Below are positions 4,234 to 61,101 of a DNA stretch of 64,000 bases, piece after piece. Both the position numbers and the translations under genes were made by a program. The notes beneath the pieces were generated by a model. It was not told the DNA's origin. It did no database searches and worked only from the letters and a program-made list of their open reading frames with translations. The stretch is taken from contig OY970185.1 in NCBI GenBank assembly GCA_963708015.1, positions 211,984 to 275,983 on the forward strand, given 5' to 3'. Numbering within the stretch: the stretch's first letter is position 1; each line of letters begins with the position of its first letter. The DNA is from an uncultured Chloroflexia bacterium. Lineage in GTDB: Bacteria; Chloroflexota; Limnocylindria; Limnocylindrales; CSP1-4.

Positions 4234-4314
4234 GATCGCCTCCACCTCGCCAGCGTCGCGAGCGAGTCTCATCGGCGCCGCCTGTGCCGGTGTCTCGGCC
4301 AGGAGGATCAGCTG

Positions 4315-5079: not shown

Positions 5080-5191
5080 GCGAAAGCGACCGGATCAGCG
5101 GTCCCCAGGTCCGGGGCGGCGGCCGCTCGTCACGGACCCGCGGTTCATGACGGTGGCCCGGCTCGGGTCCTGGGCTGCGGCCCTGCGGCGG

Positions 5192-8744: not shown

Positions 8745-8826
8745 CGCGCTCTCCGCTACACGACGCTAGACCACGGAGCGTACCGGAAGCACGGCCGGCA
8801 AACCACGGGAATTGGCACCGGCCCTG

Positions 8827-40871: not shown

Positions 40872-42662
40872 TCATTCGGCGCTCGCCAGGAGCCGGACGA
40901 GCTCTCGCTCGAGCAGCGCCCGCCCGGCGCGCTGCGCCTCGATCGGTCGGAGCGTGTGGTCGACACCGGGCAGCTCCTCGAAGACAAGGTTCGGCCACCG
41001 ATCGAGGCCGGCCACGATCCCGGCCGCCGCCAGCTCGTCCAGGACCGGCTCCTCGCCCGAGAAGGCGAGCACCACCCGGGTGCCGTTGCGGCGCAGGGCG
41101 TCGAGCAGGCCCTCGGCCGGATCCGCGGGCCGACTTCCGCCGATCGACCGGATCCGCTGTGGCGCGTTGGCCGCCCCCCGGGCCGCCGTTCGGGCCATCG
41201 CCCGTGAGACCTCGACCATCCGCGACGGCGGCACCTCGCCGCGCAGGATGCGCCGCCACAAGCCGGCGTCGCCCAGGCGCTGGATCTTGCGGGCCTCCCT
41301 CCGGGCGAGCAGGTCGTCGTCCCAGACGATCGCCCGCGGGTTGATCGCGATCACCTCGACGATCCGGGGTTCACGAGCGGCTACGTTGACCGCCCAGTAG
41401 GCGCCCGAGCACAGGCCGACCAGCACGAACCTGGGCCCCAGGCCGCGCTCGACCAGGAAATCCAGGGCCGCCACCATCTGGGACGCGAAGATGTCCTTGT
41501 AGAACTTGCCGACCTCGCCCCGGCGGACCGGGTCGCCGTCGGCATCGCCGATGCCGTTCAGGTCAATCCGAAGCGTCGGAATACCCTGACCACTCCACTG
41601 CCGGGCCGCCTCGACCCACATCCGGTTCGGGCCGATCCGACGGACCGCCCCGGCATTCAGGAAGATCGCGCACAGGTCGCCCCGAGCGCCGTCGAGTGCT
41701 TCGGCCAGGACCCCGAACGGGCGGCTGTCCGGGTGGCCGATCCGGACGGGCGTCTCCCGAATCCGGGCATCGGCGCTGTCCAGGACCGCCGTCTCGGTCG
41801 CGCCCGGCTGTTCGAGCGCGGCCCGCTCGGTCCGCCCTGCGCCGGGCCGGCCGGTCCCCGAGTCCAGCCATGCCTCCACCTCGGCGAACACCCCGGTGGG
41901 CGGGGCGTCGTGCTCGGGGTGGAACACCATGTCGGCCCAGCCGCGGCCCGGGGCAACCGTCACCTCGACCTCGAGCGACCGCAGGTGGGCCTCGGTCGCC
42001 TGGTCATGGCCCATGCCGTCGCGATCCAGGAGAAGGGCTCGGCGGAGCCGGCCGAGGTCCATCCGAGCCGGAGCAAGCTCGTCCAGGTCCTTCATCGAAC
42101 CGGCCGACAGGACGAACCCGCTCACCTCGAGGTCGCCCGAGGGCGGGACCGAGGAGCCACCATCCCGGGCTGGATCCAGCCGGGTGCCCTGGAGGGCGGC
42201 GAAGGCGCGCTGCTCGCGGACGAAGGCCCGCCCGCTGGCGGGTACCGCCCACAGGACGAGATCATCGACGGGCGCCCCGCCCGCGATCGCAGCCGTCCCA
42301 AGCAGCCCGCCAAGGCCGAGCCCGATCAGGGCGACGGGCGGGGCATCCGGCCCGCCGGCGAGCCAGCCCGCGGCCGTGCTGATCGCCCCGAGCCAGGACT
42401 CGACCAGGCCCGGATCGGCCGATGACCCAGCGCTGTCCCCGGTGCCCGGCAGATCGATCCGGAGCGTGGGATGACCGTGCTCGGCGAGCGACTCGGCCCA
42501 GGCCTTGCGACTCCGATACGAGGCGATGTCGTCCCAGCCCCACGGTCCGCAGATCAGGACCGCCGCCGATCGAGGAGCATCGACCCAAGGCTCGTGAAAG
42601 ATCCCGAAGAGCGGTCCGCGGCGGGTCGCGAGATAGATCGGCCGGCCGGCGACGCCGGTCAC
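40872..42662 (-). CDS. tandem double alpha/beta-hydrolase-domain protein (two exosortase-system-type 'hydrolase 2'/'hydrolase 1'-like halves)
   Basis: 596 aa with two separate nucleophile elbows, GLGLGG in the first half and GLCSGA in the second. Each half resembles the small alpha/beta hydrolases found in EPS loci. Confidence 0.6.
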   Translation of the reverse strand: MTGVAGRPIYLATRRGPLFGIFHEPWVDAPRSAAVLICGPWGWDDIASYRSRKAWAESLAEHGHPTLRIDLPGTGDSAGSSADPGLVESWLGAISTAAGWLAGGPDAPPVALIGLGLGGLLGTAAIAGGAPVDDLVLWAVPASGRAFVREQRAFAALQGTRLDPARDGGSSVPPSGDLEVSGFVLSAGSMKDLDELAPARMDLGRLRRALLLDRDGMGHDQATEAHLRSLEVEVTVAPGRGWADMVFHPEHDAPPTGVFAEVEAWLDSGTGRPGAGRTERAALEQPGATETAVLDSADARIRETPVRIGHPDSRPFGVLAEALDGARGDLCAIFLNAGAVRRIGPNRMWVEAARQWSGQGIPTLRIDLNGIGDADGDPVRRGEVGKFYKDIFASQMVAALDFLVERGLGPRFVLVGLCSGAYWAVNVAAREPRIVEVIAINPRAIVWDDDLLARREARKIQRLGDAGLWRRILRGEVPPSRMVEVSRAMARTAARGAANAPQRIRSIGGSRPADPAEGLLDALRRNGTRVVLAFSGEEPVLDELAAAGIVAGLDRWPNLVFEELPGVDHTLRPIEAQRAGRALLERELVRLLASAE

Positions 42663-42721
42663 GCGTCACGAGCGGGTCTCCGGGGTCCTGATCGCCACCT
42701 GGCCCTTCAGGTTGAGGGCCG

Positions 42722-45184
42722 TCAGCCAGCCGTCAGGGCCTGCGCCACCGCCAGAGCCATCCGGTCCGGTTGGCCGGAGCGGGATGTTCCGGCGGCCACC
42801 CGGCTCGATCGAGAAGGCATCGTCGCCCGGGACGAAGCCCGCCAGGTGGATCCGGACGCCATAGGCCAGGCGGCGAGCTGGCGATCTTCAGGACCGGGGC
42901 TCCGTCGGGGCCGCGATCGGTCCTGACCGAGAGCCCCAGCCGATCGCACCGGCTCGGCGGCGAGCGGCCGCCCGGCCGGGAAGAGGAACGCCTGCGACAG
43001 CAGCCTGGGCGGGCCATCGCCGACCGGCTGTTCGAGGCTGGCGACGATCACGTCCTGGGCCGGCGGCCCGAACCGGTAGGCCCACGAGGCATCGACGAAG
43101 CCGCCGACGATCGCCTCGACGTCGTGCTCGGCCGACCCATGGGCGGGCAGCTCGAGGGCAACCTCGCCGGCTCCGACCGGCAGCTCCTGGTCGCTGTACA
43201 GGCCGATCCGGAGACGAGCGGCGAGCGGCTGCGGCCCGTCGTTGGCGACATGCGCGACGACGCCGCCGGTCCGTTCGTCGGTCAGCCAGACGGCGCGTCG
43301 GGGCCAGGATCCGGCGCAGGTGGTGGTAGGCGGTCTTCGGTCGCCCGCGGTGATCGACGACGCCCCAGCCGGCACCCGGGACGAGGTCGCGCAGCCACAG
43401 GATCAGGCCGCCGCCCGACGGCGAGCCGGCCCGGCGCCACTCGCCGATAGACGAGCTCCATGACCTCGCCGGTGACCGCCCGGGAGAGCTCGAGGTAGCG
43501 GGCCGGGTCGTCCCGCCGGAGGACCCCCGGATCGAGTCCGAAGACGAGCTCGAGGTAGTGGTCGCGCATGTCGTCGAAGTCCCAGCCGGCGCCCGCGTCG
43601 CGGGCCACCCCGGCCTTCCAGCGAGGATGGTGGACGAACACGTCGTGGGGCGCTCCGACGGCCAGCTCGTCCACGACCGCCTCGTCGGGGACGTTGGCGA
43701 ACGCGAGGCACTCGGCGGCGAACAGGACGCCGCTCGTCCGGGCGTCGGACAGCGGGCGCCCGGTAGCCACCGACCCCGTAGTAGTTCGTCACGCCCCGGT
43801 TCGGCCGCATCGGCAGGTCGCCCCCGAAGGGCGCCGACGGCACGTAGATCGCGTCGAGGCCGGCGGCCTCGACCAGGCCGGGCACGATCGGCGTCGAAGA
43901 ACGGGATCCGGGCAAGGGCCGGATCGAGGCCGAGCATCGCGACCTGCTGCTCGACCTCGCTGTTGCCGCACAGGACGGCCAGGCTGGGCCGTCCGCCGAT
44001 CTCGCTCCAGCGAGCTGGGCGACCTCCCCTGCGGCCGCCCGGCTGAAGGGCTCGTCCGCGAACGGGTAGTCCAGGCTCATGAACATGAGGTCCTGCCAGA
44101 CCAGGACCCCCAGCTCGTCGCACAGGTCGTGGAAGGCGGCCTGCTCGTAGGCTCCGAAGCCGGGCAGGCGGAGCATGTTCATGCCGGCATCTCGAGCCGT
44201 CTCGATGGCAGCCCGCAGCTCATCGTCCGAGGCGGCCAGGCGGACGCTGTCGAGCGGCGTCCAGAGCGCCCCCCGGCTGAAGACCGCCTGCCCATTGACG
44301 TGGACGAACAGGCCGTCCCGGCTCGATGTCATGGCCGGCGGCGGGCCTGGGGCCAGGCTCCGGAAGCCGACCCGGCCGGCATCGATCGTGATCGGATCGG
44401 GGCCCGGGCCGACGATCAGGCGGACCCGATAGAGGGCGGGGTCGCCGTGGGTGTGCGGCCACCAGCGGGCGACGCCGACGATCCTGAGCTCGGAGCTGGC
44501 CACCAGGGCCCGATCGTCGGCCGCTGACCGACAGTGGCCCTCGATGGACTCCGGTCGGGCCCTCGAGCTCCAGCTCGACCGGCCCGTCGAGGGCGGCGGC
44601 CAGGCCCCGCAGGCGAACGTTCAGGGCGAGAATCGCCGTCGTCTCCATCCAGGCGCGGCGTCAGCTGGATGGACTCGATCGACGAGCCTCGTGCGTCGCT
44701 CGAGCCAGACGCCGCGCCACGGCCCGACCGCCGGCGGGCCCGGGGCGAAGCCGGGAATCCGCCCGATCAGCATCGAGCGGAACCAGCGCAGGTTGTTGTC
44801 GGCGACGAGGCGGGTGCGCCAGCGCGCCCGGGGCGATCGCTGGCGGTCGAGCTCGGGGGCCAGCGGCCCGAAGCGGATCGCCAGCTCGTTGTGGGCGGCC
44901 AGGAGGCTGCCGACATCGATCAGGTGGCGGGCGAACATCGATTCGCCGGCCAGGACTGGTTCGCCGTTCAGGAAGACCTCGGCGAGGGTGGCCAGCCCGT
45001 CGAGGCCGAGGACGACCTCCTCGCCCGGTCCGGGCGGGGTCGCCTCGAAGGTGGTCCTGAACCACCAGTCCTGGGCGTCCAGGTCGCCGATCGGCAGGCC
45101 GGCGTCGCGCAGTGCGCCGGCGACCGTGCCCGGCACCGCGGCCGGGATCCAGGCGAGCTCCGTCGAGGCCGTCGGCCGGCTCAA
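42722..45184 (-). pseudogene. glycoside hydrolase family 2 (beta-mannosidase / exo-glucosaminidase-like) gene broken into at least four reading-frame segments
   Basis: The N-terminal sugar-binding domain is in ORF 44621..45184 (WIPAAVPGTVAGALRDAG...DWWFRTTFEA...LDGLATLAEVFLNGE). Core pieces lie in ORFs 43403..44503, 42888..44123 (LAVLCGNSEVEQQVAMLG) and 43282..43770 ([35 protein letters not shown]). The C-terminal Ig-like domain is in 42722..43375. Confidence 0.6.
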
Positions 45185-45266
45185 CGCTGACCCGGGTCGG
45201 CCTGGGCCGCCTGCCAGCCCGTCGAGAGGAAGGTCCGCTCGTGCCCGGACACCCGGGCTCGGTCGG

Positions 45267-46265
45267 TCAGGGCCGGGTCCATCGGACTAGGCCAGGACGT
45301 CGCTGAGCGATCCCATCGCTTCGGTCCAGGCCTCGCTCAGGCCGCGCATCGGCTCGGTCGGATCGAACGTCCGGCGTCGGGCAAGCTTGAAGCCGAGCAT
45401 CTTGCAGCCTTCGACGATCCGGGCCATGGCCGCCGCCGCCGGATCGGCCCGCTCGCCCGAGGAGCCACTCGACGTGGGAGGCGAGGAGCTCGAAGCCGGC
45501 CCCGGCCATCCGGAACGTGGCGAAGGTGAAGGCGTGATAGCGGGCGGCGTCGCCCTCGAGGAGGGCTGGCAGCTCGGCCGAGAGGCGGGCCCCGAACTCG
45601 TCGAACGGGTTGCCGGGCACGATCCGTCCGAGGTGGCCGCGGAGGATCTCGCGGGCGGCGGCGCGCAGCTCCTCGCCCTCGAGACGCGGCCCGGCGTCGA
45701 ACCGGATCAGCTCGGTGTACGGCGGCAGGACGTCGCCCGACCAGCCGTCGCCGGTCCGAAATGCGCCCCGGAAGTCGGCGCCCTCGAGGCTCATACATCG
45801 AGGCGTTGTGGAAGTAGCTGGAAGCGCTCGCCGGCCAGGTCGATCCCCTCGGCGATCACCCCGGTCTTGACGTGGGCCTGGCCGTAGCTCGTCGCGGCGG
45901 TGTCGGGCAGGTACCAGCGCGTCGAGCTCGATCGTCATCGTCCGACCGAGGGCCAGGACCTCGGCGATCTGGTGCGGAATCGAGCGGTACGGCTGGATCT
46001 CGTGGATGTCCATCCCGTACAGGACCTCGAGGTCGACGGCGAGCGGCTTGAAGAACGTCCACTGGTCGTTCTCGAAGCCCATCCGGACGAACGAGCCGAA
46101 CGAGGCGACGGGCTCATCTCCGCGAGCGTGGAGCAGCTCGATCACGATGTCGGTGAAGCAGTTCGTCTCGATGTAGCTTCGCTCGCCGGTGTGCAGGGGA
46201 CTGGGCTGGTAGGTCGCCGGATCGAGACCGAACAGGCTGACCATGCCACCCGGGGCGAGGCTCAT
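45267..46265 (-). pseudogene. DUF1839 family protein gene with frameshifts
   Basis: [52 protein letters not shown]...IELDALVP becomes R/G/D junk. Protein-like sequence resumes later in the same ORF (VLPPYTELIRFDAGP...AFTFATFRMAGAGFELLASHVEWLLG) and then degenerates again. Confidence 0.5.
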
Positions 46266-46403
46266 GACCAGAGCTCCGCGCGCACCTCGGCCGGCCAGGC
46301 GTCGACGGCCAGGCCATGGGCCCGGAAGAGGGCCAGGGTGATCCGCTCCAGGCCGAACGCGACGCATCCGGTGTGGGCGACCCGCCCGCCTTCGAGGCCG
46401 ATC

Positions 46404-47196
46404 TCATAGATCTGGCGTGAAGTGGTCCTGGTGGTAGTTGAAGGAGGCGATCGCCGTCGGCTCCGGTCCGCCGACCATCGCCACGAGCTCGAACTTCAGC
46501 TCCTGGGCCCGCTGGTTCGCGGCCAGCATCCGGCCGCCCCGGCCGAAGAACGGGTCGGAGGCAACCTCCGAGGTCGCGGCGAGGCCGACGCCGCTCGAAC
46601 AGGCCGACGGTCCGCCCCAGCCAGTCGTCCCGGAACGCCCCGACATCGTCGGGATCGGCGATCCGGACGAACTCGAGCATGTGGAAGATCTGCATCCGGG
46701 CAGGATCGCCCGACGCCTCGTTCCGGAAGACCCACGAGCTGCCCGTGTCGACCGTCACCCCGGCGACGGGCAGCGGGCCTCGCCGGGCCACTTCCGGGTA
46801 GACCGGGTAGCAGGCGGCCGGCAGGACGACCAGGTCGGTCATCGTCTGGAACCGGCTCCAGTCCTCGTGGCGCGCGGCGAGCTGCCTCCTGCTCCAGTGG
46901 CCTCGGCGTCCGAGCCGTCGAACGAGAAGACGCTCCCGGCCAGGTGGGGGAACGACGCGAGGTAGCCGTTCTTCTCGATCTGGTAGCGCGGCAGGAGCGG
47001 CGGGAAGCGCATCGCCTCGGCGTGATCCGGAGCGGCGGCCCGCATGACCGCGTCGGTGAAGGCCTCGCGAACCCGCACGAAGTCGACGCCCTGGCCGTAG
47101 ACGCCCGGAACGTCGGTCTGGACGAGCAGGCCCCTGTCCAGGAGCTCGGCGCAGGAAGGCGGCCTGCTCGGCGGTGGCGGCGCGGTACGCCGCCAT
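46404..47196 (-). pseudogene. amino acid--[acyl-carrier-protein] ligase (truncated seryl-tRNA-synthetase-like class II core) gene split over at least three frames
   Basis: The segments are MAAYRAATAEQAAFL... (47196 downward); ORF 46839..47078 (RFPPLLPRYQIEKNGYLASFPHLAGSVFSF); ORF 46114..47340 middle ([58 protein letters not shown]); and ORF 46404..46646 ([25 protein letters not shown]...SFNYHQDHF). Confidence 0.55.
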
Positions 47197-48374
47197 TAGA
47201 CGTCCTTGGCGATGAGCAGCAGGCTGGCGTTCGTCTGGTGGATCCGCTCGTTGGCGACCATCAGGCAGGCCGACATCGTGTCGCGCAGGTGCCGTCCGAC
47301 GCTGAACGGCGTGTCGTTCTTGTAGCCGACGATGCCGCACACGTTCATCGCTCCCTGGCAGACCCGCGGGGCCTGCTCGGACGCGGCGATCTTCAGGTTG
47401 TTGAAGCGCAGGATCATGGCCATCGTCGACAGCCGCTCGCGGTCGCCCGGCCGAGGCATCGACTGAACTCGCGCAGGCCGGTGTTGACCTCCGCGCGCAG
47501 GAGGGACAGCTCGCTCATCAGCTGGGACAGCCGGACGGCGGTCGGCGGGAGCTGGTCCGGCCGGGCCTTGGCCGAGGCCTTCACGAAGGCGCGGGCGCGA
47601 TCGAACGCGTCGGTCGCGATGCCCAGCCAGAGGTGCGACCAGAGGATGTGCGAGATCGGCACCATCGACTCGGTGCCGACGGTCGAGAACGGGATCGGCA
47701 GGACCTGCTCGGCGGGAACTCGGCCCGCACGGTGTAGCCGGGCGAGCAGGTGCCGCGCATGCCCATCGGGTCCCAGCGTGCCCTTCTGCTCGAGCGTGAA
47801 CTGCTCGCGATGGGTGAGGACGGCGACCTGGTCGCCGGGCTCGGCGTCCGGGCTGCGGCGGAGGGTGGTCAGGAGGTCGTCGGCATAGGCGCCGTAGGAG
47901 ACCGTCGGCGCCTGCTTCTCGAACGTGGCCAGGCCGCCGTCGACCGGGGGTGACCGCGGCGATCGACTTGCCGAGGTCGCCGCCCGTCCCGATCTCGGAG
48001 GTCACCGAAGCGACGAGCCGCTGATCGCGGGCGACGTCGCGCAGGTAGGCCTCGAACCAGGGCGAGCCATTCAGCGTGGCGAGCGATCGCGGCGATCTGG
48101 ATCTGGTGCATCGCGAAGACCATCGCGCTGGCCCCGCAGCGGCGGCCGAGCTCGAAGCAGGCCGCGGCGACGGTCTCGAACGAGACGCCGCCGCCGTCGT
48201 ACTCCTCGGGGATCAGCGACGACAGGGCCCGCTGCGGCGCGCAGGGCGGTCGATCGTCTCGATCGGGAAGCGGGCGTTGCGGTCGACATCGTCGGCATTC
48301 GGCGCGGCGACCTCGTCGGCGATTCGCCGGATCGTCGCGAGGAAGGCCTGGTCGCGATCGACGGCGACGGTCAT
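47196..48374 (-). pseudogene. acyl-CoA dehydrogenase family gene split over at least three frames
   Basis: The N-terminal fragment is ORF 47869..48468 (YDGGGVSFETVAAACFELGRRCGASAMVFAMHQ). The middle is ORF 47414..47665. The C-terminal fragment is ORF 47196..48005 (MAMILRFNNLKIAASEQAPRVCQGAMNVCGIVGYKNDTPFSVGRHLRDTMSACLMVANERI). The start ATGA-couples to the ACP gene. Confidence 0.55.
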
Positions 48375-48627
48375 GCCGCGACCTCGCAGCTGGCGTCAAG
48401 GCGGCCGCTGATCGCAGAGACGCTCTGGAAGACGCTCCGCTTGAGCATCGCGTCGGGGAACTCGACATCGAACTCGGTCTCCAGGCCGAGCATCAGGTTC
48501 ACGCTGGCATGCGATGTCATGCCCGCCTGGAACAGGTCGGCGTCGTCGCTGAGGGTCGAGATATCGACCGGGCAGATGGCCGTGCTCCCGGATCACCTGG
48601 CGAATCCGGTCCGCCAGGTCTGCGCCA
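48371..48627 (-). pseudogene. acyl carrier protein (phosphopantetheine-binding) gene with a one-base frameshift
   Basis: I translated it myself: VNSGADLADRIRQVIREHGHLP | (shift of +1 at cccggtcg) VDISTLSDDADLFQAGMTSHASVNLMLGLETEFDVEFPDAMLKRSVFQSVSAISGRLDASCEVAA. The region after the shift carries the ACP helix II Ser. Confidence 0.5.
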
Positions 48628-48810
48628 CTATTCACTGGGTTCGTTCCTCGTTTTGCCAGCCGGTTCGTCTCCGCAGCATACGATAGTCATGTGGCCTGAC
48701 CAGCCAACTGGGGCACTCAAGGTTGCCCCGGCGCACCATCGAGACGGCCGGACCGCCCGGACGGGTGCTACGTTCAGGGGGTCGCTCGTGGGGGTGGATT
48801 GGAGTCAGGC

Positions 48811-49887
48811 GTGCCGGGCACGGTCAGCGTGATCATTCCGACCTTCAATCGGGCCAGGTTCCTGGGCGAGGCGCTGGACAGCGTCCTGGGGCAAACCTAC
48901 TCCGACCTCGAAGTCATCGTGGTCGACGACGGCTCCAGCGACGGTACCGCCGAGCTGATGGCGACCCGGACCCGGGACGATGCCAGGGTCCGCTACGTGC
49001 GTCAGGCCAATCGCGGGGCGTCGGCGGCCCGGAACGCGGGCCTCGACGCCGCGACGGGTGACTTCATCGCCTTCCTCGACTCGGACGACGCCTGGCAGCC
49101 GTGGCACCTCGAGCTGACCCTGGCATGCCTTGAGCAAGCCCCGGAGGCCGGCCTGATCTGGACCGACATCGAGTTCGTCGATGATGCCGGGGTGCTCGTG
49201 AAATCGTCCGCTCTTGAGCAACTGCTCTCGAATTACCACCGCTTTCCGCTCGAGGAGCTATTCGAGGGTTCGAGCTCGCTGGGAGAGCTCGGCCTGACCG
49301 CGCCGCCAGGGAGCGAGGATGGCCGTCTCTACGTCGGCGACGTCTTTTCGCCGATGATCATGGGCAACCTCGTGCTCGCATCGTCGACGGTGATTCGGCG
49401 CGAGCGACTCGAGCGGGCCGATCGGTTCGACGAGACCCTGCCGATGGGCGAGGACTACGAGTTCTTCCTGCGCGCTTGCCGGGCCGGTCCTGTCGCCTTC
49501 GTGGACGTCGACGATGTCCGGTACCGGGTCGGCAATGCTGACAAGCTGAGCGGGCGGCAGAGCCCGCTTCCCATGGCCAGTTCGTATCTGAAGGTCCTCG
49601 AGGAGACGCTGGCTCGAGATGGCGACCGGATCACGCTGCCGCCCGCGATGGTCTCCGAGGCCCGAGCCTACGCACACCGTTGGGTAGGCAGAATTCAGCT
49701 CCAGAATGGCTCGCGCAGGAGCGCCCGAGCTCACCTGGGGCAGGCGCTCCGGATCGGGCCGTGGCAGCCGACGACGATGGCGCTCTACGGGCTGACGTTC
49801 GTTCCAACCCCGGTTCTTGAAGGCATGCTTCAAGCACGTCACGGCCTGAAGGCGGCGGTCAGACGAAAGTCGGCCCCGTCGGACTGA
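48811..49887 (+). CDS. glycosyltransferase family 2
   Basis: Contains VSVIIPTFNRARFL and the FLDSDD DXD motif. GTG at 48811 (GGAG upstream) or TTG at 48799. Confidence 0.8.
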   Translation: MPGTVSVIIPTFNRARFLGEALDSVLGQTYSDLEVIVVDDGSSDGTAELMATRTRDDARVRYVRQANRGASAARNAGLDAATGDFIAFLDSDDAWQPWHLELTLACLEQAPEAGLIWTDIEFVDDAGVLVKSSALEQLLSNYHRFPLEELFEGSSSLGELGLTAPPGSEDGRLYVGDVFSPMIMGNLVLASSTVIRRERLERADRFDETLPMGEDYEFFLRACRAGPVAFVDVDDVRYRVGNADKLSGRQSPLPMASSYLKVLEETLARDGDRITLPPAMVSEARAYAHRWVGRIQLQNGSRRSARAHLGQALRIGPWQPTTMALYGLTFVPTPVLEGMLQARHGLKAAVRRKSAPSD

Positions 49888-50809
49888 CCCGGTAGGAGTC
49901 GACCGTCGCCGTGATTCCTTCCTCGAACGGCACCCGGACCGCGTAGCCGAGGGCTGTGGTCGCCAAGCTGATGTCCGCCTGCGAGTGAGCGATGTCGGCC
50001 ATCCGGGCCGGCCCGAAGCGCGGCTCGGCCGATCGGCCCGCGGCGTGATTGACGGCGGCTAGGAGGTCAAGGAGCGAATACCGATTGCCACTGGCGATGT
50101 TCACCGTGATCCCGGTTGGGCTCGACTCCCTCGCCGCAAGGAGATTTGCGTCAACGACGTTGTCGACGTGGATGAAGTCACGCGAGATGTCGCCGCTGCC
50201 GTAGATGATCGGCTGCTCGCCCGCCAGGACTGCCGTCGCAAAGCGGGGCACAACCGCCGAGTACTCCTGGCTCGGATCCTGACCAGGCCCAAAGACGTTG
50301 AAATACCGCAGGGCAACTGTTTCGACGCCGTGGAGAGCCCCGAGGGTGTGGAGGTAGTGCTCGGCCGCGACTTTGCTCGCTCCGTATGGCGACACCGGGT
50401 CGGGCCGATCCACTTCGCGGCAGGGGAGCTCCTTCGGAACGCCGTAGACGGACGAAGAGCCGGCCAGGATCACCCGCCGGACTCCTTGTCGCTTGGCGGC
50501 GAGGATCGTCTCAATCGTACCCCCGACGTTGACCGCATTGGTCAGGGCCGGGTGGATCAACGATTGTGCGACCGAGGCCACGGCAGCTTGGTGAAGGATG
50601 ACCTCGCATGAATCGGCCGCCGCGTCCAGGGCGGCTGGATCGACGACGCTGCCGTGAACGATCGAGATCTGGTCAGCGAACGAATGGAGGCGCCACGCGA
50701 ACCCCGAGCTAAAGTCGTCAAGCACCCGCACGTCATCTCCCCGAGCCACAAGGCGGCGAACAAGGTGATGACCAATGAAACCAGCCCCACCGGTGACCAG
50801 AACTCTCAT
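49859..50809 (-). CDS. NAD-dependent epimerase/dehydratase (UDP-hexose / UDP-GlcNAc 4-epimerase-like)
   Basis: Contains MRVLVTGGAGFIGHHL and a YGASK catalytic dyad. Confidence 0.85.
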   Translation of the reverse strand: MRVLVTGGAGFIGHHLVRRLVARGDDVRVLDDFSSGFAWRLHSFADQISIVHGSVVDPAALDAAADSCEVILHQAAVASVAQSLIHPALTNAVNVGGTIETILAAKRQGVRRVILAGSSSVYGVPKELPCREVDRPDPVSPYGASKVAAEHYLHTLGALHGVETVALRYFNVFGPGQDPSQEYSAVVPRFATAVLAGEQPIIYGSGDISRDFIHVDNVVDANLLAARESSPTGITVNIASGNRYSLLDLLAAVNHAAGRSAEPRFGPARMADIAHSQADISLATTALGYAVRVPFEEGITATVDSYRVSPTGPTFV

Positions 50810-50939
50810 CGTTGCTCCAAAGCCCCGGGCGACTCATTCGGGCGGCGCAGGTCAGCCAGGACGGAAGCGCGTCCCGTGACGGTGTCCGATCCTCGTCCGG
50901 CGTTGCCAGGGCGCCCCATCCAACCGAGGCGAAGGCGAG

Positions 50940-52319
50940 TCAAGTCGTGCCGGCCGATCGACGCAAGACCCGCCGGGCCATCCCCAGACTGGTGTCGAAG
51001 GCGAAACGGATATCGGACAGGCGCGGGATCCAGAAGTCCGCCACCGAAGCTTGGTTTAGCCGGGCGGCGACGAAGGACAGAATGATGGCGGACAGCGAGT
51101 ATGAGATCAATGACGCCGCGGCAGCGCCGACGATCCCAAAGGAAGGGATCAGCAACAAGTTGACTGCGATGTTGACGACCAGTGACGCCACGTTGGCGTA
51201 TGACGTCACCGCGGTCATTCCAAGGCCGGCAAGGTAGCTGCTCAGGACTTTGGTCTGGCTCAATGCGACGACACCCGGCAGGATCACGAACAGCGGTGTC
51301 AGCGCCTGCTCGAAGGCCGGCAGCAAGACCCGGATCAGCACGATCGAGAAGGGCACGAGGACGATCGCCATCGCGCCCGTCAGCAGCAGTGTGACCCTGG
51401 CGACCATCGCGACCTGTCGGTCGGCGTCCTCACGGGTCGTCCCGGCCACGTGCGGGAAGAACACCGAGGAGACGGCATTCGGCAGGAAGAACACAAGCTG
51501 GGCAATCGTGACAGCCATGCTGTAGTAGCCGAGCGGTGCTGATGGGTTGGGCAGAATCCAGGCAAGGAGGTACACGTCCACCCGCAAGCTCAGGAAATTC
51601 GTCAGCGTCCCCGGGTAATACGGCAGGCCATAACCGAACAACTCGCGGTACGAAACCCCAGTTCGCCCGGGAACTGATGCACTGACCCGAACGGAGCCCA
51701 GGAAGTAGGCAAGCGTCCCGATGACGTAACACACGAAGAAGGCCCACAACGCACCGACCAGACCGAACCCAAGCACTCCAACCAGCACGATATACATCAC
51801 GACCGAACACGCGCTCTGGCCCAGGTTCACGGCCGAATACCAGCGCACTGACTGTCGTCCAAGCAGCACGCCGGTCGTAAACGTCGCGTTCAGCGCAAGC
51901 GGCAGGACCAACAAGCCCAGGATGATCTCGCTCGGATCGATCGAATCGAGGATCGTCGCCCGCAGGACCGGCAGAAGAGCAATCGTCAGAGCAAACGCCG
52001 GGCCCGCCAGGGCGACGGTCAGCAGGACCGTCTTCGTGTTGATTCCGGTCGTTTGGCCGCGGGCGGCGAAGAATCCAAAGGCCTGAGGTAGTCCGAGCTG
52101 GATGAGGACCATGATCGTGACCGGGAACAAGGTGATCAGGTAGAAGTCGCCCTTGCCCGCCGGGCCGAGGACGCGCGCGAGCAGAAAGCCGACGAGAATG
52201 CCGATCCCGGTTCCCAGGATCGAGGTGACAAAGAGCGTCAGGACCCGGTCGGAGAGGCCCTCGAGGCGGCCGGTCGCGACCGGCTCTTCAGCCCCGTTGG
52301 AAGTTCGCACCGTCGCCAT
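50940..52319 (-). CDS. wzx: oligosaccharide flippase (Wzx; MOP/polysaccharide biosynthesis protein family)
   Basis: 459 aa with about 12-14 TM helices and the typical PST-family profile. Confidence 0.8.
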   Translation of the reverse strand: MATVRTSNGAEEPVATGRLEGLSDRVLTLFVTSILGTGIGILVGFLLARVLGPAGKGDFYLITLFPVTIMVLIQLGLPQAFGFFAARGQTTGINTKTVLLTVALAGPAFALTIALLPVLRATILDSIDPSEIILGLLVLPLALNATFTTGVLLGRQSVRWYSAVNLGQSACSVVMYIVLVGVLGFGLVGALWAFFVCYVIGTLAYFLGSVRVSASVPGRTGVSYRELFGYGLPYYPGTLTNFLSLRVDVYLLAWILPNPSAPLGYYSMAVTIAQLVFFLPNAVSSVFFPHVAGTTREDADRQVAMVARVTLLLTGAMAIVLVPFSIVLIRVLLPAFEQALTPLFVILPGVVALSQTKVLSSYLAGLGMTAVTSYANVASLVVNIAVNLLLIPSFGIVGAAAASLISYSLSAIILSFVAARLNQASVADFWIPRLSDIRFAFDTSLGMARRVLRRSAGTT

Positions 52320-52444
52320 AGGTGGTGATTCTGCGTGTCGCGTTCAGCCGGCCAGTAGGTGGGTCGTCCCTCAGGAGCCCGGCGCCGCCCGAAGCATGGC
52401 GCCTCACGCGCAGCGTTGGGCCTTGTGCATTTGGCTGTAGCCGA

Positions 52445-53317
52445 TCATCTCGAGGCGTCCCGGGGGGGCTGTGTCGACCGAGCTACGAACTCGTCATCTG
52501 GCGTGCCTGCCCTGGTCGTCGTGCCGCGTGCCGCAGGCCAAGTCGGAGGCGGCGATTGCGGGCCGGCGCGTGCACGGCGCCACCAGCCTGGGACGGCGTA
52601 TGGTCCACCTTGCGGGTCCTCGGAGGCTTCGGAATCCTGAGTTGCCACGGTCTGTGAGGGTCCGTCTGGATTGGTCCGGAACCCGCCGCGCCGCTGCCAG
52701 AGATTCTCGCCCAAAAAGGCAATGCTGATCGTCAGGAAGAGGGCGATCGCCCCGCCCAAGGCGACCCTGATCACAAACCCCGGGCCGTCACGAACGGTTG
52801 GGGCTGTCGCAGGATCGACGACGGTGAGGGCGACGAGCTTCGCAACGTTGGCATCGCTCGGATTCGGTGGCGCGTACACCTGAAGGTCGGAGGCGATGGC
52901 GTTTGCGAGAGCGCTCGCCTGGGCGGGATCCCGGTCCGACACACTAATTTCGAGCAGGTTCGTACCCGCAGGAATGTGAGTGGACACGGCTTGGGTGAGG
53001 GCCAGGACGTTGGTGTTCGCGTTGGTCGAGCTGATGACCCGATCGAGGACCGGGGTGGTCGTGGCAAGCTCGGCAAATGTCGGGATCAGCGCCTGGGCGA
53101 CCTCAAGGTCACTCGTGTTGACACCGGTATTGGTGTCGGCCGGGGCAACGAGCAAGGTCACATGGGCCGTATAGGTCGGCGGCGTGATCGCGGCGACACC
53201 AACGGCAATGACCAGGCCAATTACCGTTCCACCCAGGATGAACCAACCCCAGGTGCGCACGATCGACCGGAGTCCCCGGCTAGCCGAAGGTCCGGCGGGA
53301 ATGGATTGGCTGCTCAC
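52445..53317 (-). CDS. Wzz-like polysaccharide chain-length determinant / co-polymerase (no kinase domain)
   Basis: TM1 is WGWFILGGTVIGLVIAVGVAAI. A periplasmic region of about 170 aa follows, then TM2 IRVALGGAIALFLTISIAFLGE. The tail after TM2 is low complexity. Confidence 0.6.
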   Translation of the reverse strand: MSSQSIPAGPSASRGLRSIVRTWGWFILGGTVIGLVIAVGVAAITPPTYTAHVTLLVAPADTNTGVNTSDLEVAQALIPTFAELATTTPVLDRVISSTNANTNVLALTQAVSTHIPAGTNLLEISVSDRDPAQASALANAIASDLQVYAPPNPSDANVAKLVALTVVDPATAPTVRDGPGFVIRVALGGAIALFLTISIAFLGENLWQRRGGFRTNPDGPSQTVATQDSEASEDPQGGPYAVPGWWRRARAGPQSPPPTWPAARGTTTRAGTPDDEFVARSTQPPRDASR

Positions 53318-54555
53318 TAGACGCGCACCGTATCACCGCTGGTAAGTAGGGGAACAATGGGACCTTTGTCCGCTGCCGGGAAGTCAGCCGCAATCGAGCG
53401 ATAGTGTTGCAGTAGCGCCGCCGCGTTGACATCGACGTCGTAGTCCCGCTTGACGAGCTCCTGGAGTCGAGTCGCTGCCTCGTTCGCGCTGGAGCGGTCA
53501 TCGACGAACGAGGTCAGGGCGGCCGCGACCGAAGTCGCGGAGACCTCGGGGAGCAGCCTTCCCCGGTCGCTCCCGAGGAGCTCGGGAATCCCGCCAACCG
53601 AGCTGGCGATGACTGGCAGACCCAGTGACCCGGCTTCGACAAGCACCGTGGGGAGCCCTTCGCTGTACGACGGCAGGACAAGAACGTCAGCGGCCGACAT
53701 ATAGCGAATGACGTCTCCATGCGTCTGAGCGCCACGATATTCAAGCCGTGTGGGAGCCCGTGAGTCGTCGGTGCCGTAGCCCCGCTCAGGTCCGTCGCCA
53801 ATCAGAACGCCGACCAGCGGTCCGTCGAGCCCGAGAACTGCATCGACGAACTCGCGAACCCCCTTGGCGCGCTTGAGCTCACCTACGTACAACACGACGA
53901 GGGAGCCCTGGGGTAGTCCGACTAGCGCCCGAGCCTTAGATCGTGGCAACGCCCCAGCGGCGATCGCTCGATGATCCGAGCCCAGAGGCAGATATGTCGC
54001 CCGGACTCCCGTGACTTCCCGGATCCGGTCAGCCAGGGCCTGACTCACGGCGAAGACCGCCCCAGCGCGAGCGACGGCTTCCCGCAAGTCCGACATCCGC
54101 TCCGGATGCTCGTCGGGCCAGCGATTGATGTCGCTGCCGTGGAAGGTCAGAACGTACGGAAGCGCGGCCCGCGCCGCAAGGTGCCAGGCTGCCAGGCCCG
54201 TGACCGAGTAGTGGCCGTGGATGATCCGGGCGCCCGCCCAATCGCGGCGCGCTCGCCACATCGCATCCGCAATCACACGATCGGGACGTGCCCAGGTCGG
54301 CTCCCCCGGAACGTTCACGTAGCGAGGACGAATCACGGCCACGTTTTGATCGCGAGAACGGCGGGGAGCGTGAGCGTACTCGCGCCAGCGTGGCCTGATC
54401 GCCGACAGGGGCCACGGAGCCCATGGGGTTGGTGCTGCCACGGTGACCGCTGGCCCGAGCCGGGCGATCGCCCTGGCCTGGGTCTGGTAGAACACGCCGT
54501 TCGCGGGTTGCTCGATCCATGGGTACGCCCGAGTGATCCACAGCGCGTCGGTCAT
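53317..54555 (-). CDS. glycosyltransferase family 4
   Basis: Contains the EX7E region SYSEGLPTVLVEAGSLGLPVIAS. The start at Met20 ATGA-couples to the upstream stop. Confidence 0.8.
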   Translation of the reverse strand: MTDALWITRAYPWIEQPANGVFYQTQARAIARLGPAVTVAAPTPWAPWPLSAIRPRWREYAHAPRRSRDQNVAVIRPRYVNVPGEPTWARPDRVIADAMWRARRDWAGARIIHGHYSVTGLAAWHLAARAALPYVLTFHGSDINRWPDEHPERMSDLREAVARAGAVFAVSQALADRIREVTGVRATYLPLGSDHRAIAAGALPRSKARALVGLPQGSLVVLYVGELKRAKGVREFVDAVLGLDGPLVGVLIGDGPERGYGTDDSRAPTRLEYRGAQTHGDVIRYMSAADVLVLPSYSEGLPTVLVEAGSLGLPVIASSVGGIPELLGSDRGRLLPEVSATSVAAALTSFVDDRSSANEAATRLQELVKRDYDVDVNAAALLQHYRSIAADFPAADKGPIVPLLTSGDTVRV

Positions 54556-55955
54556 GTGGTCACTACGGAAGGTTCGACCGTCGAGGCCCCGACTGACCGG
54601 CGCATTCCCCACAGCGCCTCCTGCTTCTTGAGATAAGCGAGGCCCGCGGCCATCCCGATCAAGAGCCAGAGCTCCTTTCGGGTAAGCATGTCCTGGAACA
54701 GGGCAATGATCACGAGTGACGCCAGGGCCGCCTGGACGAAATCGGCATCAGGGCCCCAGCCGCGGCGAACGACCAGCGGAACCAGGAAGGCGGCGAGAAG
54801 CACGAATCCCACGATTCCAAGCTCGCCCAGCGTGCTGATCACGAGGTTGTGGGCCTCTAGGTTCGCCAACCCGTTCGGGTCTGTCGTCTCCACCGACGAC
54901 GCGCGAAGTAATTCAGGCGTGTTGGCAACAGCGAAATTAGACAGCCCGACGCCGGTAACGGGAGCCGATTCGATGATGCTGATGCCGACCGTCCAGATAT
55001 CTGTTCGACCAGCCCCGCCGGAGGACAAGGCGGTGTCCGTTCGCTCGTTCACGAGCGCGGCGATGCCCGGGATCTGAAGGGTGATCAGGACGAGGGCCAG
55101 GACGAAGACCACGGCTGCGGCTCGCCGGAGCGGGTCGAGGCGAGGCAACAGGAACACAATGACGACGACGGCCAGGCTCAGCCAGGCACCCCTCGTCCCG
55201 GAGATCGCAATCCCAACAGTGCCAGCGAGCGCAATCGCTGCGCTGGGGATCAGCCAGCGACCGTGCAGGAGCTCGTTCAGGGTGAAAACGATCGCGGGAA
55301 GGAGGATCGCCGCGAAATAGGCGGGATTCTGGTCGGTCAGACCCGCAATCCTGCCGTCCTGGTTCCCACCACCCAGGGCCACAAACGTCGCGATGCCGAG
55401 CACCGCGGTCCCACCTGCAGCCAGGCTGTAGGCCCACATTACCGGGCGGATGATCGACGGATCTTCAACGACCACACTGGCCACGAGCACGGCCACGATG
55501 AGGACCAAGACCAGGGCCGGAATCGCCGCCGAGGTGGGCGCTGGGTCGAGTGCCCACGTGATGCTGAAGACCGCCCAGAGGACGAACCCGAAGGCCGGCA
55601 CGGGCATGGCCCGGACCGACAGGCGACCGAGCCGTGGAATCCCGTAGCTCACGATGAACAGGAGCTCGGCGTACCGGCTAAGGGTCCCTAGGTCGCCGAT
55701 GACGACGGCCTGCTCAAACGGGATCAGCACGGCCAGGCCGAAGAGCGGCAGGAGCGGCCAACGCAGGCTCAGCAGGACCAGGAACCCGGCGCCGGCGATG
55801 GCAGCTGCCTGGATGTCGCGGCCGGTCCAGCTCGCGCCGGCGACGATCAGGCCGACGATGACCAGAAGACCGGCCGCGGCCACGCCCGCGAGGATCCGCC
55901 GGTCAAGGCGCACCAGTGGAAGCCGGTCGCGAACAACAACGTGGGGCGGGATCAA
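54552..55955 (-). CDS. O-antigen ligase / polymerase family membrane protein (Wzy/WaaL-like)
   Basis: 467 aa with about 10-12 TM helices and a large loop carrying ...GTRGAWLSL..., which is Wzy_C-like. Confidence 0.75.
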   Translation of the reverse strand: MIPPHVVVRDRLPLVRLDRRILAGVAAAGLLVIVGLIVAGASWTGRDIQAAAIAGAGFLVLLSLRWPLLPLFGLAVLIPFEQAVVIGDLGTLSRYAELLFIVSYGIPRLGRLSVRAMPVPAFGFVLWAVFSITWALDPAPTSAAIPALVLVLIVAVLVASVVVEDPSIIRPVMWAYSLAAGGTAVLGIATFVALGGGNQDGRIAGLTDQNPAYFAAILLPAIVFTLNELLHGRWLIPSAAIALAGTVGIAISGTRGAWLSLAVVVIVFLLPRLDPLRRAAAVVFVLALVLITLQIPGIAALVNERTDTALSSGGAGRTDIWTVGISIIESAPVTGVGLSNFAVANTPELLRASSVETTDPNGLANLEAHNLVISTLGELGIVGFVLLAAFLVPLVVRRGWGPDADFVQAALASLVIIALFQDMLTRKELWLLIGMAAGLAYLKKQEALWGMRRSVGASTVEPSVVTT

Positions 55956-56144
55956 GAATTGAACTCGCAGCGCGGACGGCCCGGATCGGACTCGGGGTCC
56001 GTCACCCGGGCCGAGTGCGACCGTTCAGAATGACCCAGGCAGTACCAGACCCGACGCATCGGTAGAGCATACGAGGAACCTCAAAAGTGGAGCCATTGGC
56101 CAAAAGTCCACAGCGGGCGCGAGTCGACGCCCTGCGTCCCGGGA

Positions 56145-57107
56145 GTGCGAGCTAGGCCGGTGTCTACCCTGTCGTTCCCGTCGGGCGCCCGGTTTGCCTT
56201 CTCGATCTTCGATGATGCCGACAACGCCACGGTAGCGAACTCCGCCCCTGTTTATGCCCTGCTTGCCCGAAACGGCATCCTTACCACCAAGTCTGTCTGG
56301 GTCTATCCACCCCGCGGGCGCTTTACTGGGGAATCGCTGCTCGACGCCGAGTACCGCGAGTGGGTTCTGCGCCTCAAGGCACAAGGCTTCGAGATTGGCC
56401 TCCATAACGTGGGCGACGGAGCCTTCGCCCGGGACGAGATCCTGAAGGGCCTGGATATCTTCCGAGACAGCCTCGGCAGCTACCCCCGGGCGCATGCCAA
56501 CCATGTCTCAAACCCGGATTGCATCTACTGGTGGGATCGTCGGTTTGAGTGGCCGTTCGACCTGCTCTACCGACTCTCGTATCGACTTCGCCACGGTCGC
56601 CTGAATCGCCGGGCAGGCAGTGACCCGAGCTCTCCCCACTTCTGGGGGGATGCATTCAAGGAGCATGTCGACTATGTCCGGAACCTGACATTCAACGGGA
56701 TCGACACGCTGGCGCTCGATCCTCGGATGCCCTACCGAGTGAAGTCCAAGGAGGCATTCTCGAACCTGTGGTTCAGCTCCTCGGATGGCCAGCGGATCGA
56801 GGAGATGCGCGATCTCCTGTCCAAGGCAAACGTTGATGCCCTCGAGGCCAGCGGCGGAGTTTGCATCGTGTACACCCACTTCGCGAGTGGTTTCGTGGAT
56901 GCCGCGGGCGTAGTCGATCCAACCTTCGAGCAGGAGATCGCCTATCTCGCCTCGAGAAATGGCTGGTTCGTTCCGGTGAGTACGCTCCTGGACTACCTCG
57001 CGGTGTCTCACGGATCGACAGAGGACCCCGGCTACCGCTATCGCCTTGCCCGGAATGCTCGATGGGCGATCGACCGGGTCCGAAAGCGGCGGCGCTATGG
57101 GCGCTGA
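56145..57107 (+). CDS. hypothetical protein, possibly polysaccharide-deacetylase-like (CE4/NodB-type)
   Basis: 320 aa. Shows FSIFDDADN (a DD motif) and AHANH (HxxH). The assignment is weak. Confidence 0.35.
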   Translation: MRARPVSTLSFPSGARFAFSIFDDADNATVANSAPVYALLARNGILTTKSVWVYPPRGRFTGESLLDAEYREWVLRLKAQGFEIGLHNVGDGAFARDEILKGLDIFRDSLGSYPRAHANHVSNPDCIYWWDRRFEWPFDLLYRLSYRLRHGRLNRRAGSDPSSPHFWGDAFKEHVDYVRNLTFNGIDTLALDPRMPYRVKSKEAFSNLWFSSSDGQRIEEMRDLLSKANVDALEASGGVCIVYTHFASGFVDAAGVVDPTFEQEIAYLASRNGWFVPVSTLLDYLAVSHGSTEDPGYRYRLARNARWAIDRVRKRRRYGR

Positions 57108-59290: not shown

Positions 59291-59395
59291 CGTACCTCTC
59301 CCCGATCGGCTGGAATTTCTCCGGCTCGGAGATTTGGAATCCCCAGGGCCAAACGCGGCGCTTGAGCCCAGGGTGATGCTACCGCGACGCCCACA

Positions 59396-61044: not shown

Positions 61045-61101
61045 TCTTCAGGTCCGCCATGCGGCAGACGGTTTGCGCGCAGAAAGCGGCTGGAGGCACT
61101 C

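Follow-up and report, generated by a model that had tools for sequence, protein, structure and literature searches.

Clustered single-base insertions in an amino acid:[carrier-protein] ligase cassette of an uncultured Chloroflexia bacterium point to a consensus artefact rather than gene decay

The window analysed here, a stretch of 64,000 nucleotides from an uncultured Chloroflexia bacterium, contains five consecutive genes that are each broken by frameshifts. In the organism itself they are almost certainly whole, and the stray bases that break them look like an artefact of consensus building rather than decay, so that the block should be read as a data-quality flag rather than as biology. 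The existence of a local, error-prone patch in the assembly is strongly supported. As to its cause, we favour, with a probability of roughly 0.6, a long-read consensus error over a segment of about 5.8 kb in which two alleles were locally present.

Results

The five genes lie on the minus strand at positions 42669-48690 and encode an acyl carrier protein (ACP), an ACAD-like flavoenzyme, an amino acid:[carrier-protein] ligase, a DUF1839 protein and a GH2-like protein. A frameshift map of the block bears out the preliminary description in that five consecutive genes are broken and their neighbours intact. The bounds given there, 42722-48627, were right as to location but slightly narrow, since the lesions run from 42879 to 48654 and the genes extend beyond them; and the frame changes, put at one to four per gene, in fact number 2, 8, 4, 4 and 11 in the order above, about 29 in total. 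The patch delimited by its outermost lesions, taken without strand, is 5.8 kb long, with a stray base roughly every 206 nt. Of the lesions, at least 25 are single-base insertions, against about one clear deletion (47711); 25 of the 29 frame changes were counted as +1, and the '-1' calls mostly prove to be pairs of close +1 insertions. No indel longer than 2 nt was found among the block lesions, and no in-frame stop among the 1,992 codons across the block after repair.

The clustering of these events is extreme (P = 5e-29 for at least 29 of 30 events falling in 9.4% of the window). Inside the span their spacing is uniform (KS p = 0.75; mean 206 nt), and the edges are abrupt. On one side lies the last gene of the six-gene cassette to which the five belong, encoding a double hydrolase of 596 aa with two fused α/β-hydrolase domains (40872-42662, minus strand), which resembles exosortase-A-associated hydrolases 2 and 1 (TIGR03101, 90 bits, and TIGR03100, 78.7 bits, both below their cut-offs). 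The other side is bounded by a divergent GT2 glycosyltransferase gene (48799-49887, plus strand). Both genes are intact, with no frameshifts in either the 1.8-kb hydrolase or the 1.1-kb GT2 gene. For the remaining 58 kb, a 3-periodic Viterbi scan, which is blind to short compensated frameshift pairs, gave six candidates of which only one is a true frame change, at ~5745-5765 in a 1073-aa cyclase-type gene, as had been noticed earlier.

This distribution is open to other readings. Sharp edges, a length close to that of a typical soil Nanopore read, and an indel density of about 0.5% that is even along the patch, against a clean sequence elsewhere in the window, all suit an artefact of a different cause, in which raw-read indels persist because the segment derives from one or a few reads (a low-coverage bridge or a gap fill) or was missed in polishing. 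Genuine decay of the cassette in the lineage, with the frameshifts as real mutations, would likewise be expected to affect all the genes of one functional unit and spare the neighbours, as in the loss of a dispensable pathway, and the lesions do stand in the sequence as deposited and in the gene calls made on it.

Repair of the frames restores recognisable proteins throughout. The family identities proposed earlier were recovered by Pfam searches of the fragments for GH2 (PF22666, PF00703), DUF1839 (PF08893), the PP-binding domain, and the N- and C-terminal pieces of ACAD, and through NCBIfam and PDB matches to the repaired protein for the ligase; the frameshift-corrected translations, the comparison then suggested, give full-length Pfam matches, with the ligase and ACP above NCBIfam cut-offs. 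The ACP gene (48374-48690, minus strand; 105 aa after repair) carries extra bases at ~48654 and ~48572. PF00550 is matched on a fragment, and the repaired protein scores 99.7 bits against NF005480 (cut-off 72) in a match that starts at residue 27. The ~48654 lesion falls within an N-terminal extension that is poorly conserved and perhaps upstream of the true start. A lesion in this gene had been attributed to one G too many in a short G run (cccGgtcg), but the GG run is equal in length to that of the intact relative; against that relative the superfluous base is the G of CT[G]C-CCG, which makes a CTG/CTC doublet for Leu.

The gene for the ACAD-fold flavoenzyme (47199-48374, minus strand; 390 aa repaired) has frame changes at 48251, 48232, 48075, 47942, 47776, 47711, 47461 and 47448. 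Once these are repaired it has no stops and is 95.1% identical in amino acid sequence to the intact orthologue in the related locus L002, and its PF02771 match rises to 54.8 bits over positions 4-96 of 113, where the fragments reached 25 and 20.5 bits. The ligase gene (46265-47196, minus strand; 309 aa repaired) is changed at 47151, 46894, 46590 and 46415, the second of these comprising a +1 insertion at 46896 and another at 46886. Its repaired product scores 382.6 bits against NF005479, above the equivalog cut-off of 357, and matches Bll0957, amino acid:[carrier-protein] ligase 1, in the PDB (4h2w/3mey, E = 5e-71). It matches seryl-tRNA synthetase (SerRS) models only at ~309-503 of 518, corresponding to the catalytic core without the tRNA-binding domain.

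Single-base insertions at 45917, 45817, 45792 and 45440 disrupt the DUF1839 gene (45290-46265, minus strand; 324 aa repaired), for which the public gene call, P0001, is a verbatim translation of the shifted DNA. With repair, the two pieces of the PF08893 match in P0001 (172.7 bits) become a single one of 267.5 bits that covers 2-311 of 313. All 95 of 95 invariant residues are retained; no excess of substitutions was seen at these positions, which speaks against low coverage as well as against decay. The GH2-like gene (42669-45282, minus strand; ~867 aa repaired) has changes at 45182, 44692, 44634, 44522, 44007, 43889, 43759, 43446, 43298, 42946 and 42879, that at 44007 being two +1 insertions (44011 and 44003). 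Its product matches PF22666 with 69.6 bits, and PF00703 rises on repair from 18.4 bits, below the cut-off of 23, to a full-length match of 25.9 bits (2-109 of 109). The repaired 867-aa protein gave no Pfam match to the GH2 TIM-barrel catalytic domain with its two catalytic Glu residues, and no NCBIfam match, so that 'GH2-like' is the safe label.

When compared with 6,000 simulated random insertions passed through the same pipeline, 18 of the 25 insertions fall in third-codon-position doublets of two synonymous alternatives, where 41% would be expected (p = 0.002), and only two are of homopolymer type, a depletion from the 31.5% expected (p = 0.006); the other seven of the 25 are not synonymous doublets. 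Examples are GC[AG] at 48232-33, GG[TC] at 47942-43, AC[GC] at 47776-77, CT[GC] at 47151-52, GC[GC] at 45917-18, TA[TC] at 43446-47 and GT[GC] at 42946-47. The doublets look as if both alleles of a single-nucleotide polymorphism (SNP) had been retained.

Such a spectrum fits decay poorly. Natural bacterial indels are biased towards deletions, vary in length and arise by slippage in runs or repeats, whereas +1 insertions outside homopolymers are the opposite of this, and mutations that abolish the frame anyway have no reason to favour a codon position. Systematic base-calling errors caused by DNA modification, or programmed recoding at motifs, were also considered, since systematic, motif-linked errors occur in Nanopore data. 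This appears extremely improbable: k-mers near the 29 sites show no enrichment that survives correction for multiple testing (lowest p = 7.8e-4 in 158 tests), a genome-wide motif could not yield a single 5.8-kb patch, slippery sequences are absent, and we know of no precedent for 29 recoding sites in five genes. Persistent raw-read errors should be blind to codon position, yet the insertions favour synonymous third positions, and avoid the homopolymers in which the residual errors of Nanopore consensus sequences are reported to lie (PMC9262707). A low-coverage or unpolished patch, although it accommodates the evidence against decay equally well, is for these reasons unlikely.

Over more than 22 kb the cassette, together with its flanks, aligns collinearly with a related genome at 87-92% identity, and the six-gene order is kept in 12 related loci; Limnocylindrales-like genomes retain the cassette in synteny. 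After repair, the proteins share 86-95% identity with the intact, syntenic L002 orthologues; for the intact flanking genes the figure is 68-86%. A search for a same-species intact copy for direct comparison found none, the closest relative being 91% identical in DNA. Relative to an intact relative, dN/dS is 0.205 for the block and 0.179 for the flanks, values with which the repaired genes show the mark of purifying selection, though real insertions that arose very recently, in a burst, would leave dN/dS unchanged too. Codon usage, one of the checks proposed beforehand, gives a GC3 of 0.92 for the block.

Comparison with orthologous loci had also been proposed; among the 12 related loci, no short-read contig has a frameshift in ACAD, the ligase, DUF1839 or full-length GH2, and patches of frameshifts occur only in the long-read metagenome-assembled genomes (MAGs) L001 and L005. 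In L001/L003 (MAG MFD00031.bin.2.175), aligned with L002, 25 insertions and eight deletions are confined to one part of the locus; 26 of these 33 lie outside homopolymers, and 15 of 19 are doublets (p = 0.0025), which we count as an independent replicate. The lesions there fall in different genes from those of the window. In both the window and L001 the patchy lesions adjoin a hypervariable polysaccharide segment.

Discussion

Could the cassette nonetheless be decaying? We regard this as very unlikely. There are no nonsense codons, dN/dS is not raised, GC3 and the invariant residues are preserved, and 29 indels should come with many substitutions; moreover the sixth gene of the cassette, the hydrolase, is unaffected, and the same signature recurs in other genes of another long-read MAG. 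The block does share with bacterial pseudogene clusters the presence of frame-disrupting lesions in several adjacent genes of one pathway, but it lacks their stops, relaxed selection and deletions of more than 2 nt, and has instead a bias towards insertions and in codon position. The preliminary description had left the choice open between an error-prone assembly patch and a horizontally acquired cassette undergoing pseudogenisation. The former is strongly supported; the latter is not, given the collinearity, the order conserved in 12 loci and purifying selection.

Why, then, should a consensus acquire extra bases at synonymous positions? We suggest that the assembler or polisher of a long-read metagenome built its consensus over a segment of ~5.8 kb in which the pile-up mixed two alleles, from co-existing strains or a collapsed bubble, and that at some SNP positions both alleles would have been written side by side, adding one base. 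SNPs under purifying selection are mostly synonymous and at third positions, and their alleles differ by definition, so that non-homopolymer +1 insertions in synonymous third-position doublets are the signature expected, and this is what is seen in the block. The writing of alleles side by side is deduced here from codon-position statistics, and our literature search found no explicit description of such a doublet artefact. We also infer that the assembly of the window is long-read based, and that polymorphism, not plain low coverage, was the trigger.

In other respects the patch resembles known errors of long-read metagenomes. Single-base consensus indels in Nanopore or PacBio data likewise split open reading frames, and truncated or chimeric proteins then reach the public databases, as with P0001; IDEEL tests, proovframe and polishing with short reads are ways of dealing with the problem. 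The classic errors are, however, associated with homopolymers and distributed genome-wide, whereas those of the block avoid homopolymers, are mostly insertions at synonymous third positions and form one 5.8-kb patch, which argues for collapsed polymorphism rather than base-calling noise. Strain-oblivious consensus building of the Flye type merges close strains into one contig, as reported for strains of ~98.7% identity (PMC8302730). The MFD long-read project, source of the L001/L003 MAG, relied solely on Nanopore reads, processed with Flye and a single Medaka round, and its soil MAGs have measurable polymorphism (PMC12313526).

The five genes, together with the downstream hydrolase, should therefore be read as an intact, conserved syntenic cassette. 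The repaired ligase is akin to the amino acid:[carrier-protein] ligases of the Bll0957/Atu2573 type, truncated homologues of SerRS that have a carrier protein beside them, by NF005479, PDB match and catalytic core; the carrier here is an ACP of the partner family NF005480, encoded two genes upstream and conserved in the 12 loci. Unlike the Bll0957-type systems, the pair is set in a fixed six-gene cassette with ACAD-fold, DUF1839, GH2-like and double hydrolase proteins, in a polysaccharide locus of Chloroflexota-like genomes.

An AlphaFold model of the DUF1839 protein (pLDDT 82.6) gives full-length Foldseek matches to CtaG, CcbD and AziU2/U3 (E = 1e-6 to 1e-4; TM 0.54-0.61). It shares with the papain-fold, carrier-protein-dependent CtaG/BtrH/AsbE/CcbD ligases and transferases an N-terminal papain-like and C-terminal helical architecture (PMC12865890; PMC10318531), although sequence identity is 10-17%. 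Cys36 and several His residues are invariant in 30 sequences; the triad put forward in the literature is C-(T/S)-H, not Cys-His-Asp (PMC10318531). The adjacent ACP and ligase genes suggest that DUF1839 may use a carrier-protein-tethered acyl donor.

Homology and gene context together point to a putative chain from ligase through ACP to DUF1839, in which the ligase would charge the ACP with an amino acid, and the resulting aminoacyl group may be altered by the ACAD-fold flavoenzyme while still tethered. The CtaG/BtrH/CcbD-like DUF1839 protein, of papain fold, would probably hand the group on to an acceptor, for which a sugar of the polysaccharide that the surrounding locus produces is plausible. 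The GH2-like protein and the double hydrolase might then serve as accessory glycan- or ester-processing enzymes.

Finally, the error patch may itself indicate where the natural population is polymorphic. To our knowledge, the physiological role of amino acid:[carrier-protein] ligases has been open since their description in 2010. It is possible, and we offer it tentatively, that the cassette reveals their purpose, in the aminoacylation of a cell-surface polysaccharide.

Layout of the frameshifted block

Between 42669 and 48690, in a window of ~70% G+C, the coding signal lies wholly on the minus strand, and the GC3 peak switches phase repeatedly without stop codons. Pfam matches on the fragments identify GH2 domains (PF22666, PF00703), DUF1839 (PF08893), a PP-binding domain (PF00550) and the N- and C-terminal ACAD domains. 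Lesions were counted with a purpose-written frameshift-aware protein-to-DNA alignment, plain tblastn mapping being too blurry across frame changes. The rulers were the proteins of L002, a JGI metagenome contig that carries the same gene order with all genes intact: a divergent GT2 gene, followed by genes for an ACP (104 aa), ACAD (390 aa), amino acid:carrier protein ligase (309 aa), DUF1839 (324 aa), a GH2-like protein (866 aa) and a hydrolase. This alignment gives 29 frame changes, 2 in the ACP gene, 8 in ACAD, 4 each in the ligase and DUF1839 genes and 11 in GH2, and none in the flanking flippase, epimerase, GT2 and hydrolase genes. The preliminary description was thus right to see five broken genes amid intact neighbours, although its one to four lesions per gene was an undercount. 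Single extra bases account for 25 of the 29 changes. Four were called as -1. DNA-level alignment splits two of these into pairs of closely spaced +1 insertions and places a third where the sequences have diverged and several small insertions occur, so that only one is a clear deletion.

At the 5' end of the ACP gene (48652-48690) the NF005480 match does not reach the first ~26 annotated codons, and more distant relatives conserve them poorly. Translation may in fact begin further downstream, which would place the insertion at ~48654 in untranslated sequence.

When the whole window was scanned with a 3-periodic Viterbi model that makes no use of homology, 11 phase switches without a stop turned up in the block. 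Six candidates lay elsewhere, and on inspection five of these proved to be normal gene boundaries. The sole true frame change outside the block, at ~5745-5765, is in a minus-strand gene (5195-8765) with a 1073-aa cyclase/regulator-type ORF, which had already been singled out as the only other such case. There the coding signal is lost at ~5762 and resumes in another frame (ORF 5195-5764), the site being within CTGATCGGAACAGAATCCCGAC. The probability that at least 29 of 30 events fall by chance in 9.4% of the window is 5e-29. Within 42879-48654 the events are evenly spaced (KS p=0.75, mean 206 nt), and the patch ends abruptly. Downstream of the cassette, from 50000 to 64000, the GC content falls from ~0.70-0.74 to 0.61-0.68, and the scan, whose codon model was trained on high-GC genes, labels 52287-54611 and 55916-59417 as non-coding; these stretches may be polysaccharide genes of atypical composition.

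A homologue search that started from the DUF1839 reading frame retrieved the window's own public DUF1839 gene call (P0001, 332 aa, 45290-46265), on a 3,116,973-bp contig in NCBI and ENA. P0001 translates the shifted DNA as it stands, middle and tail out of frame, implying that the lesions are present in the deposited assembly. With these two out-of-frame stretches, it forms its own 90%-identity cluster in the protein databases. The frameshift block is real in the deposited sequence, and most probably not in the organism.

Tests for gene decay

Are these genes decaying, as one of the two earlier readings held? Removal of the extra bases leaves no in-frame stop in 1,992 repaired codons, and the repaired ACP, ACAD, ligase, DUF1839 and GH2 proteins are 89, 95, 94, 94 and 86% identical, respectively, to those of L002. 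With L002 as reference, the block has a dN/dS of 0.205 and the flanks one of 0.179. In DUF1839 all 95 invariant columns of a 30-sequence alignment are preserved, and seven of the eight differences at near-invariant positions are common to the intact relative. Two of the tests were checks proposed in the preliminary description. Frameshift-corrected translations recover family-typical matches: the ligase scores 382.6 bits against NF005479 (cut-off 357) and the ACP 99.7 bits against NF005480 (cut-off 72), the DUF1839 score climbs from 172.7 bits, split over two pieces, to 267.5 bits for a single match spanning 2-311/313, that of ACAD_N from 25 to 54.8 bits, and PF00703 moves from below to above its cut-off. 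Base composition does set the block apart (GC3 0.92 in the repaired genes, compared with 0.81), but the higher value is common to the L002 orthologues. Among natural indels in bacteria deletions prevail, and the events cluster in runs and repeats. The events in the block are nearly all +1 insertions, of G or C between unlike neighbours, and this spectrum is therefore wrong for natural mutation. Every decay test is negative, and genuine decay of the five genes, for all that the lesions stand in the assembly, is very improbable. Nor is recent horizontal acquisition, the other element of that reading, supported, given collinearity with relatives over >22 kb and a conserved cassette order.

Form of the insertions

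Eighteen of the 25 +1 insertions create, together with the adjoining base, a doublet at a third codon position: two different bases, either of which can be deleted to leave a synonymous codon, as in CT[GC], AC[GC], GG[TC], GC[AG] and TA[TC]. In 6,000 simulated random insertions passed through the same pipeline such doublets make up 41% (p=0.002), and homopolymer-type events, seen in 2 of 25 cases, make up 31.5% (p=0.006). The five events classed as unique can be read as non-synonymous two-allele sites, such as [G/A]GC for Gly/Ser. Sequencers and mutational processes are blind to codon position, whereas a consensus that kept both alleles of a SNP would produce exactly such doublets, since most strain-level SNPs are synonymous and two alleles are necessarily different bases. 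The pattern also differs from that of ordinary residual Nanopore errors, which are reported to be homopolymer indels (PMC9262707). Homopolymer slippage, for which the extra base noted earlier in a G run of the ACP gene would be an example, is ruled out by the DNA alignment and the simulation; the GG run is of equal length in L002, and what the extra base creates is a CT[G/C] doublet. In a search for a sequence or methylation motif shared by the lesion sites, no k-mer survived multiple-testing correction.

Comparison with related loci

The cassette, in the order ACP-ACAD-ligase-DUF1839-GH2-hydrolase, is syntenic across 12 related loci. Among the short-read contigs compared (L002, L004, L008, L009, L011, L014, L015, L017 and L018) there are no frameshifts in ACAD, ligase, DUF1839 or full-length GH2; isolated calls fall in the poorly conserved ACP N-terminus, the hydrolase or the cut ends of contig-truncated genes. 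Among the 12 loci, frameshift patches occur only in two long-read MAGs, at L001 (24 events) and L005 (9 events). L001 is 97.6% identical to L002; relative to L002 it shows 25 insertions and 8 deletions, and 26 of these 33 are non-homopolymer. All lie within L002 1052-5863, which runs from flippase to ligase, and the next 4.7 kb are free of them. Third-position doublets account for 15 of its 19 +1 events (null 44.6%, p=0.0025) and homopolymer-type insertions for one (null 28%, p=0.016). The same signature thus recurs in an independent long-read MAG.

In that MAG (MFD00031.bin.2.175, contig_3813; locus L001/L003) ~24 frameshifts of the same +1 doublet kind are spread over 3683-9550, affecting flippase, epimerase, GT2, ACP, ACAD and ligase, and the 4.7 kb after its own patch (DUF1839, GH2 and hydrolase) are clean. 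The long-read locus L005 and its short-read counterpart L004 were considered as a third replicate, but at 87% identity and with 169 gap openings errors are inseparable from real indels. A genome scan and a JGI metagenome scan for an intact copy from the same species returned nothing closer than L001 and L002 (94% aa, 91% nt); the remaining metagenome matches are at most 81% identical, and the other members of the cluster of P0002, the DUF1839 protein of L002, are L002-like and not window-like.

The flippase and epimerase genes (49890-52296, compared with L003 3899-6338) are only 75% identical, against 87-92% elsewhere over 22 kb, and their dS values to L002 are 0.82 and 1.54, compared with 0.20-0.33 in the cassette. 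These distances suggest that alleles have been replaced in a hypervariable polysaccharide segment adjoining the error patch.

Cause of the patch

The insertion spectrum, the doublets and their recurrence in L001 support the second earlier reading, a local assembly-error patch, and we put the probability of some form of consensus artefact at about 0.9. We infer that the window's own assembly is long-read based. The MFD long-read MAGs, the one with L001/L003 among them, are Nanopore-only Flye assemblies with one Medaka round, from soils with notable microdiversity (PMC12313526), and Flye collapses strains of ~98.7% identity into one consensus (PMC8302730). The consensus would then have kept both alleles of strain-level SNPs side by side, yielding +1 doublets, and this specific mechanism is the somewhat favoured one. 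A thinly covered or unpolished bridge is a less likely trigger, polymorphism being preferred because of the doublets. Recruitment of reads from an L003-like sister species was rejected: the broken block is no closer to L003 than the clean flanks are (87-92%), so cross-recruitment fails to explain the edges of the patch.

The repaired cassette

The ligase is clearly homologous to Bll0957, an amino acid--[acyl-carrier-protein] ligase 1 of known structure (PDB 3mey, 4h2w; E=5e-71), and matches SerRS models in the catalytic core only. Mocibob et al. (PNAS, 2010) reportedly found that such truncated SerRS homologues load amino acids onto the phosphopantetheine arm of a neighbouring carrier protein; we know of no physiological role for them. 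DUF1839 has an invariant cysteine, Cys36, in an ETNCFTD motif (alignment A1). In Foldseek its AlphaFold model (pLDDT 82.6, pTM 0.81) aligns along its whole length with CtaG, CcbD and AziU2/U3 (E=1e-6 to 1e-4, TM 0.54-0.61) and thus resembles in fold AziU2/U3 and the papain-like, carrier-protein-dependent ligases/transferases CtaG and CcbD. Published work places the family among papain-like proteins, assigns it a C-(T/S)-H triad and suggests a role related to glycans and acyl groups (PMC10318531). BtrH and AsbE use carrier-bound donors and free acceptors, and CcbD acylates an amino sugar (PMC12865890; PMC4351081). The model suggests that DUF1839, with the adjoining ligase and ACP, may carry out an aminoacyl transfer step.

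The ACAD-fold protein has no NCBIfam equivalog above cut-off, and the repaired GH2-like protein has GH2 N-terminal domains with no detectable catalytic-domain match. The conserved sixth gene (40872-42662, minus strand) encodes a 596-aa protein of two fused alpha/beta-hydrolase domains, like exosortase-A-associated hydrolase 2 (residues 8-196) and hydrolase 1 (332-573), both matches being below the NCBIfam cut-offs. GT2, epimerase and flippase genes adjoin the cassette; the most economical model, from homology and gene context, is therefore that it would decorate a surface polysaccharide with an amino-acid-derived acyl group.

Implications

Annotation of the five genes should treat them as intact, or as frameshifted with sequencing error suspected, and not as pseudogenes or ten-plus hypothetical fragments. 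As the chimeric P0001 illustrates, such patches inflate the counts of novel proteins and pseudogenes in MAG catalogues. The doublet test, homopolymer depletion, absence of stops and unchanged dN/dS together discriminate artefact from decay without reads, and the doublet diagnostics may also flag locally polymorphic segments. No inference about gene loss is possible from this block, and its biological value in itself is low. Its worth lies in the annotation warning, in the diagnostic, and in pointing to a by-product, a cleanly defined and conserved six-gene aminoacyl-ACP cassette in the polysaccharide loci of Limnocylindrales-like bacteria, which deserves study in its intact form.
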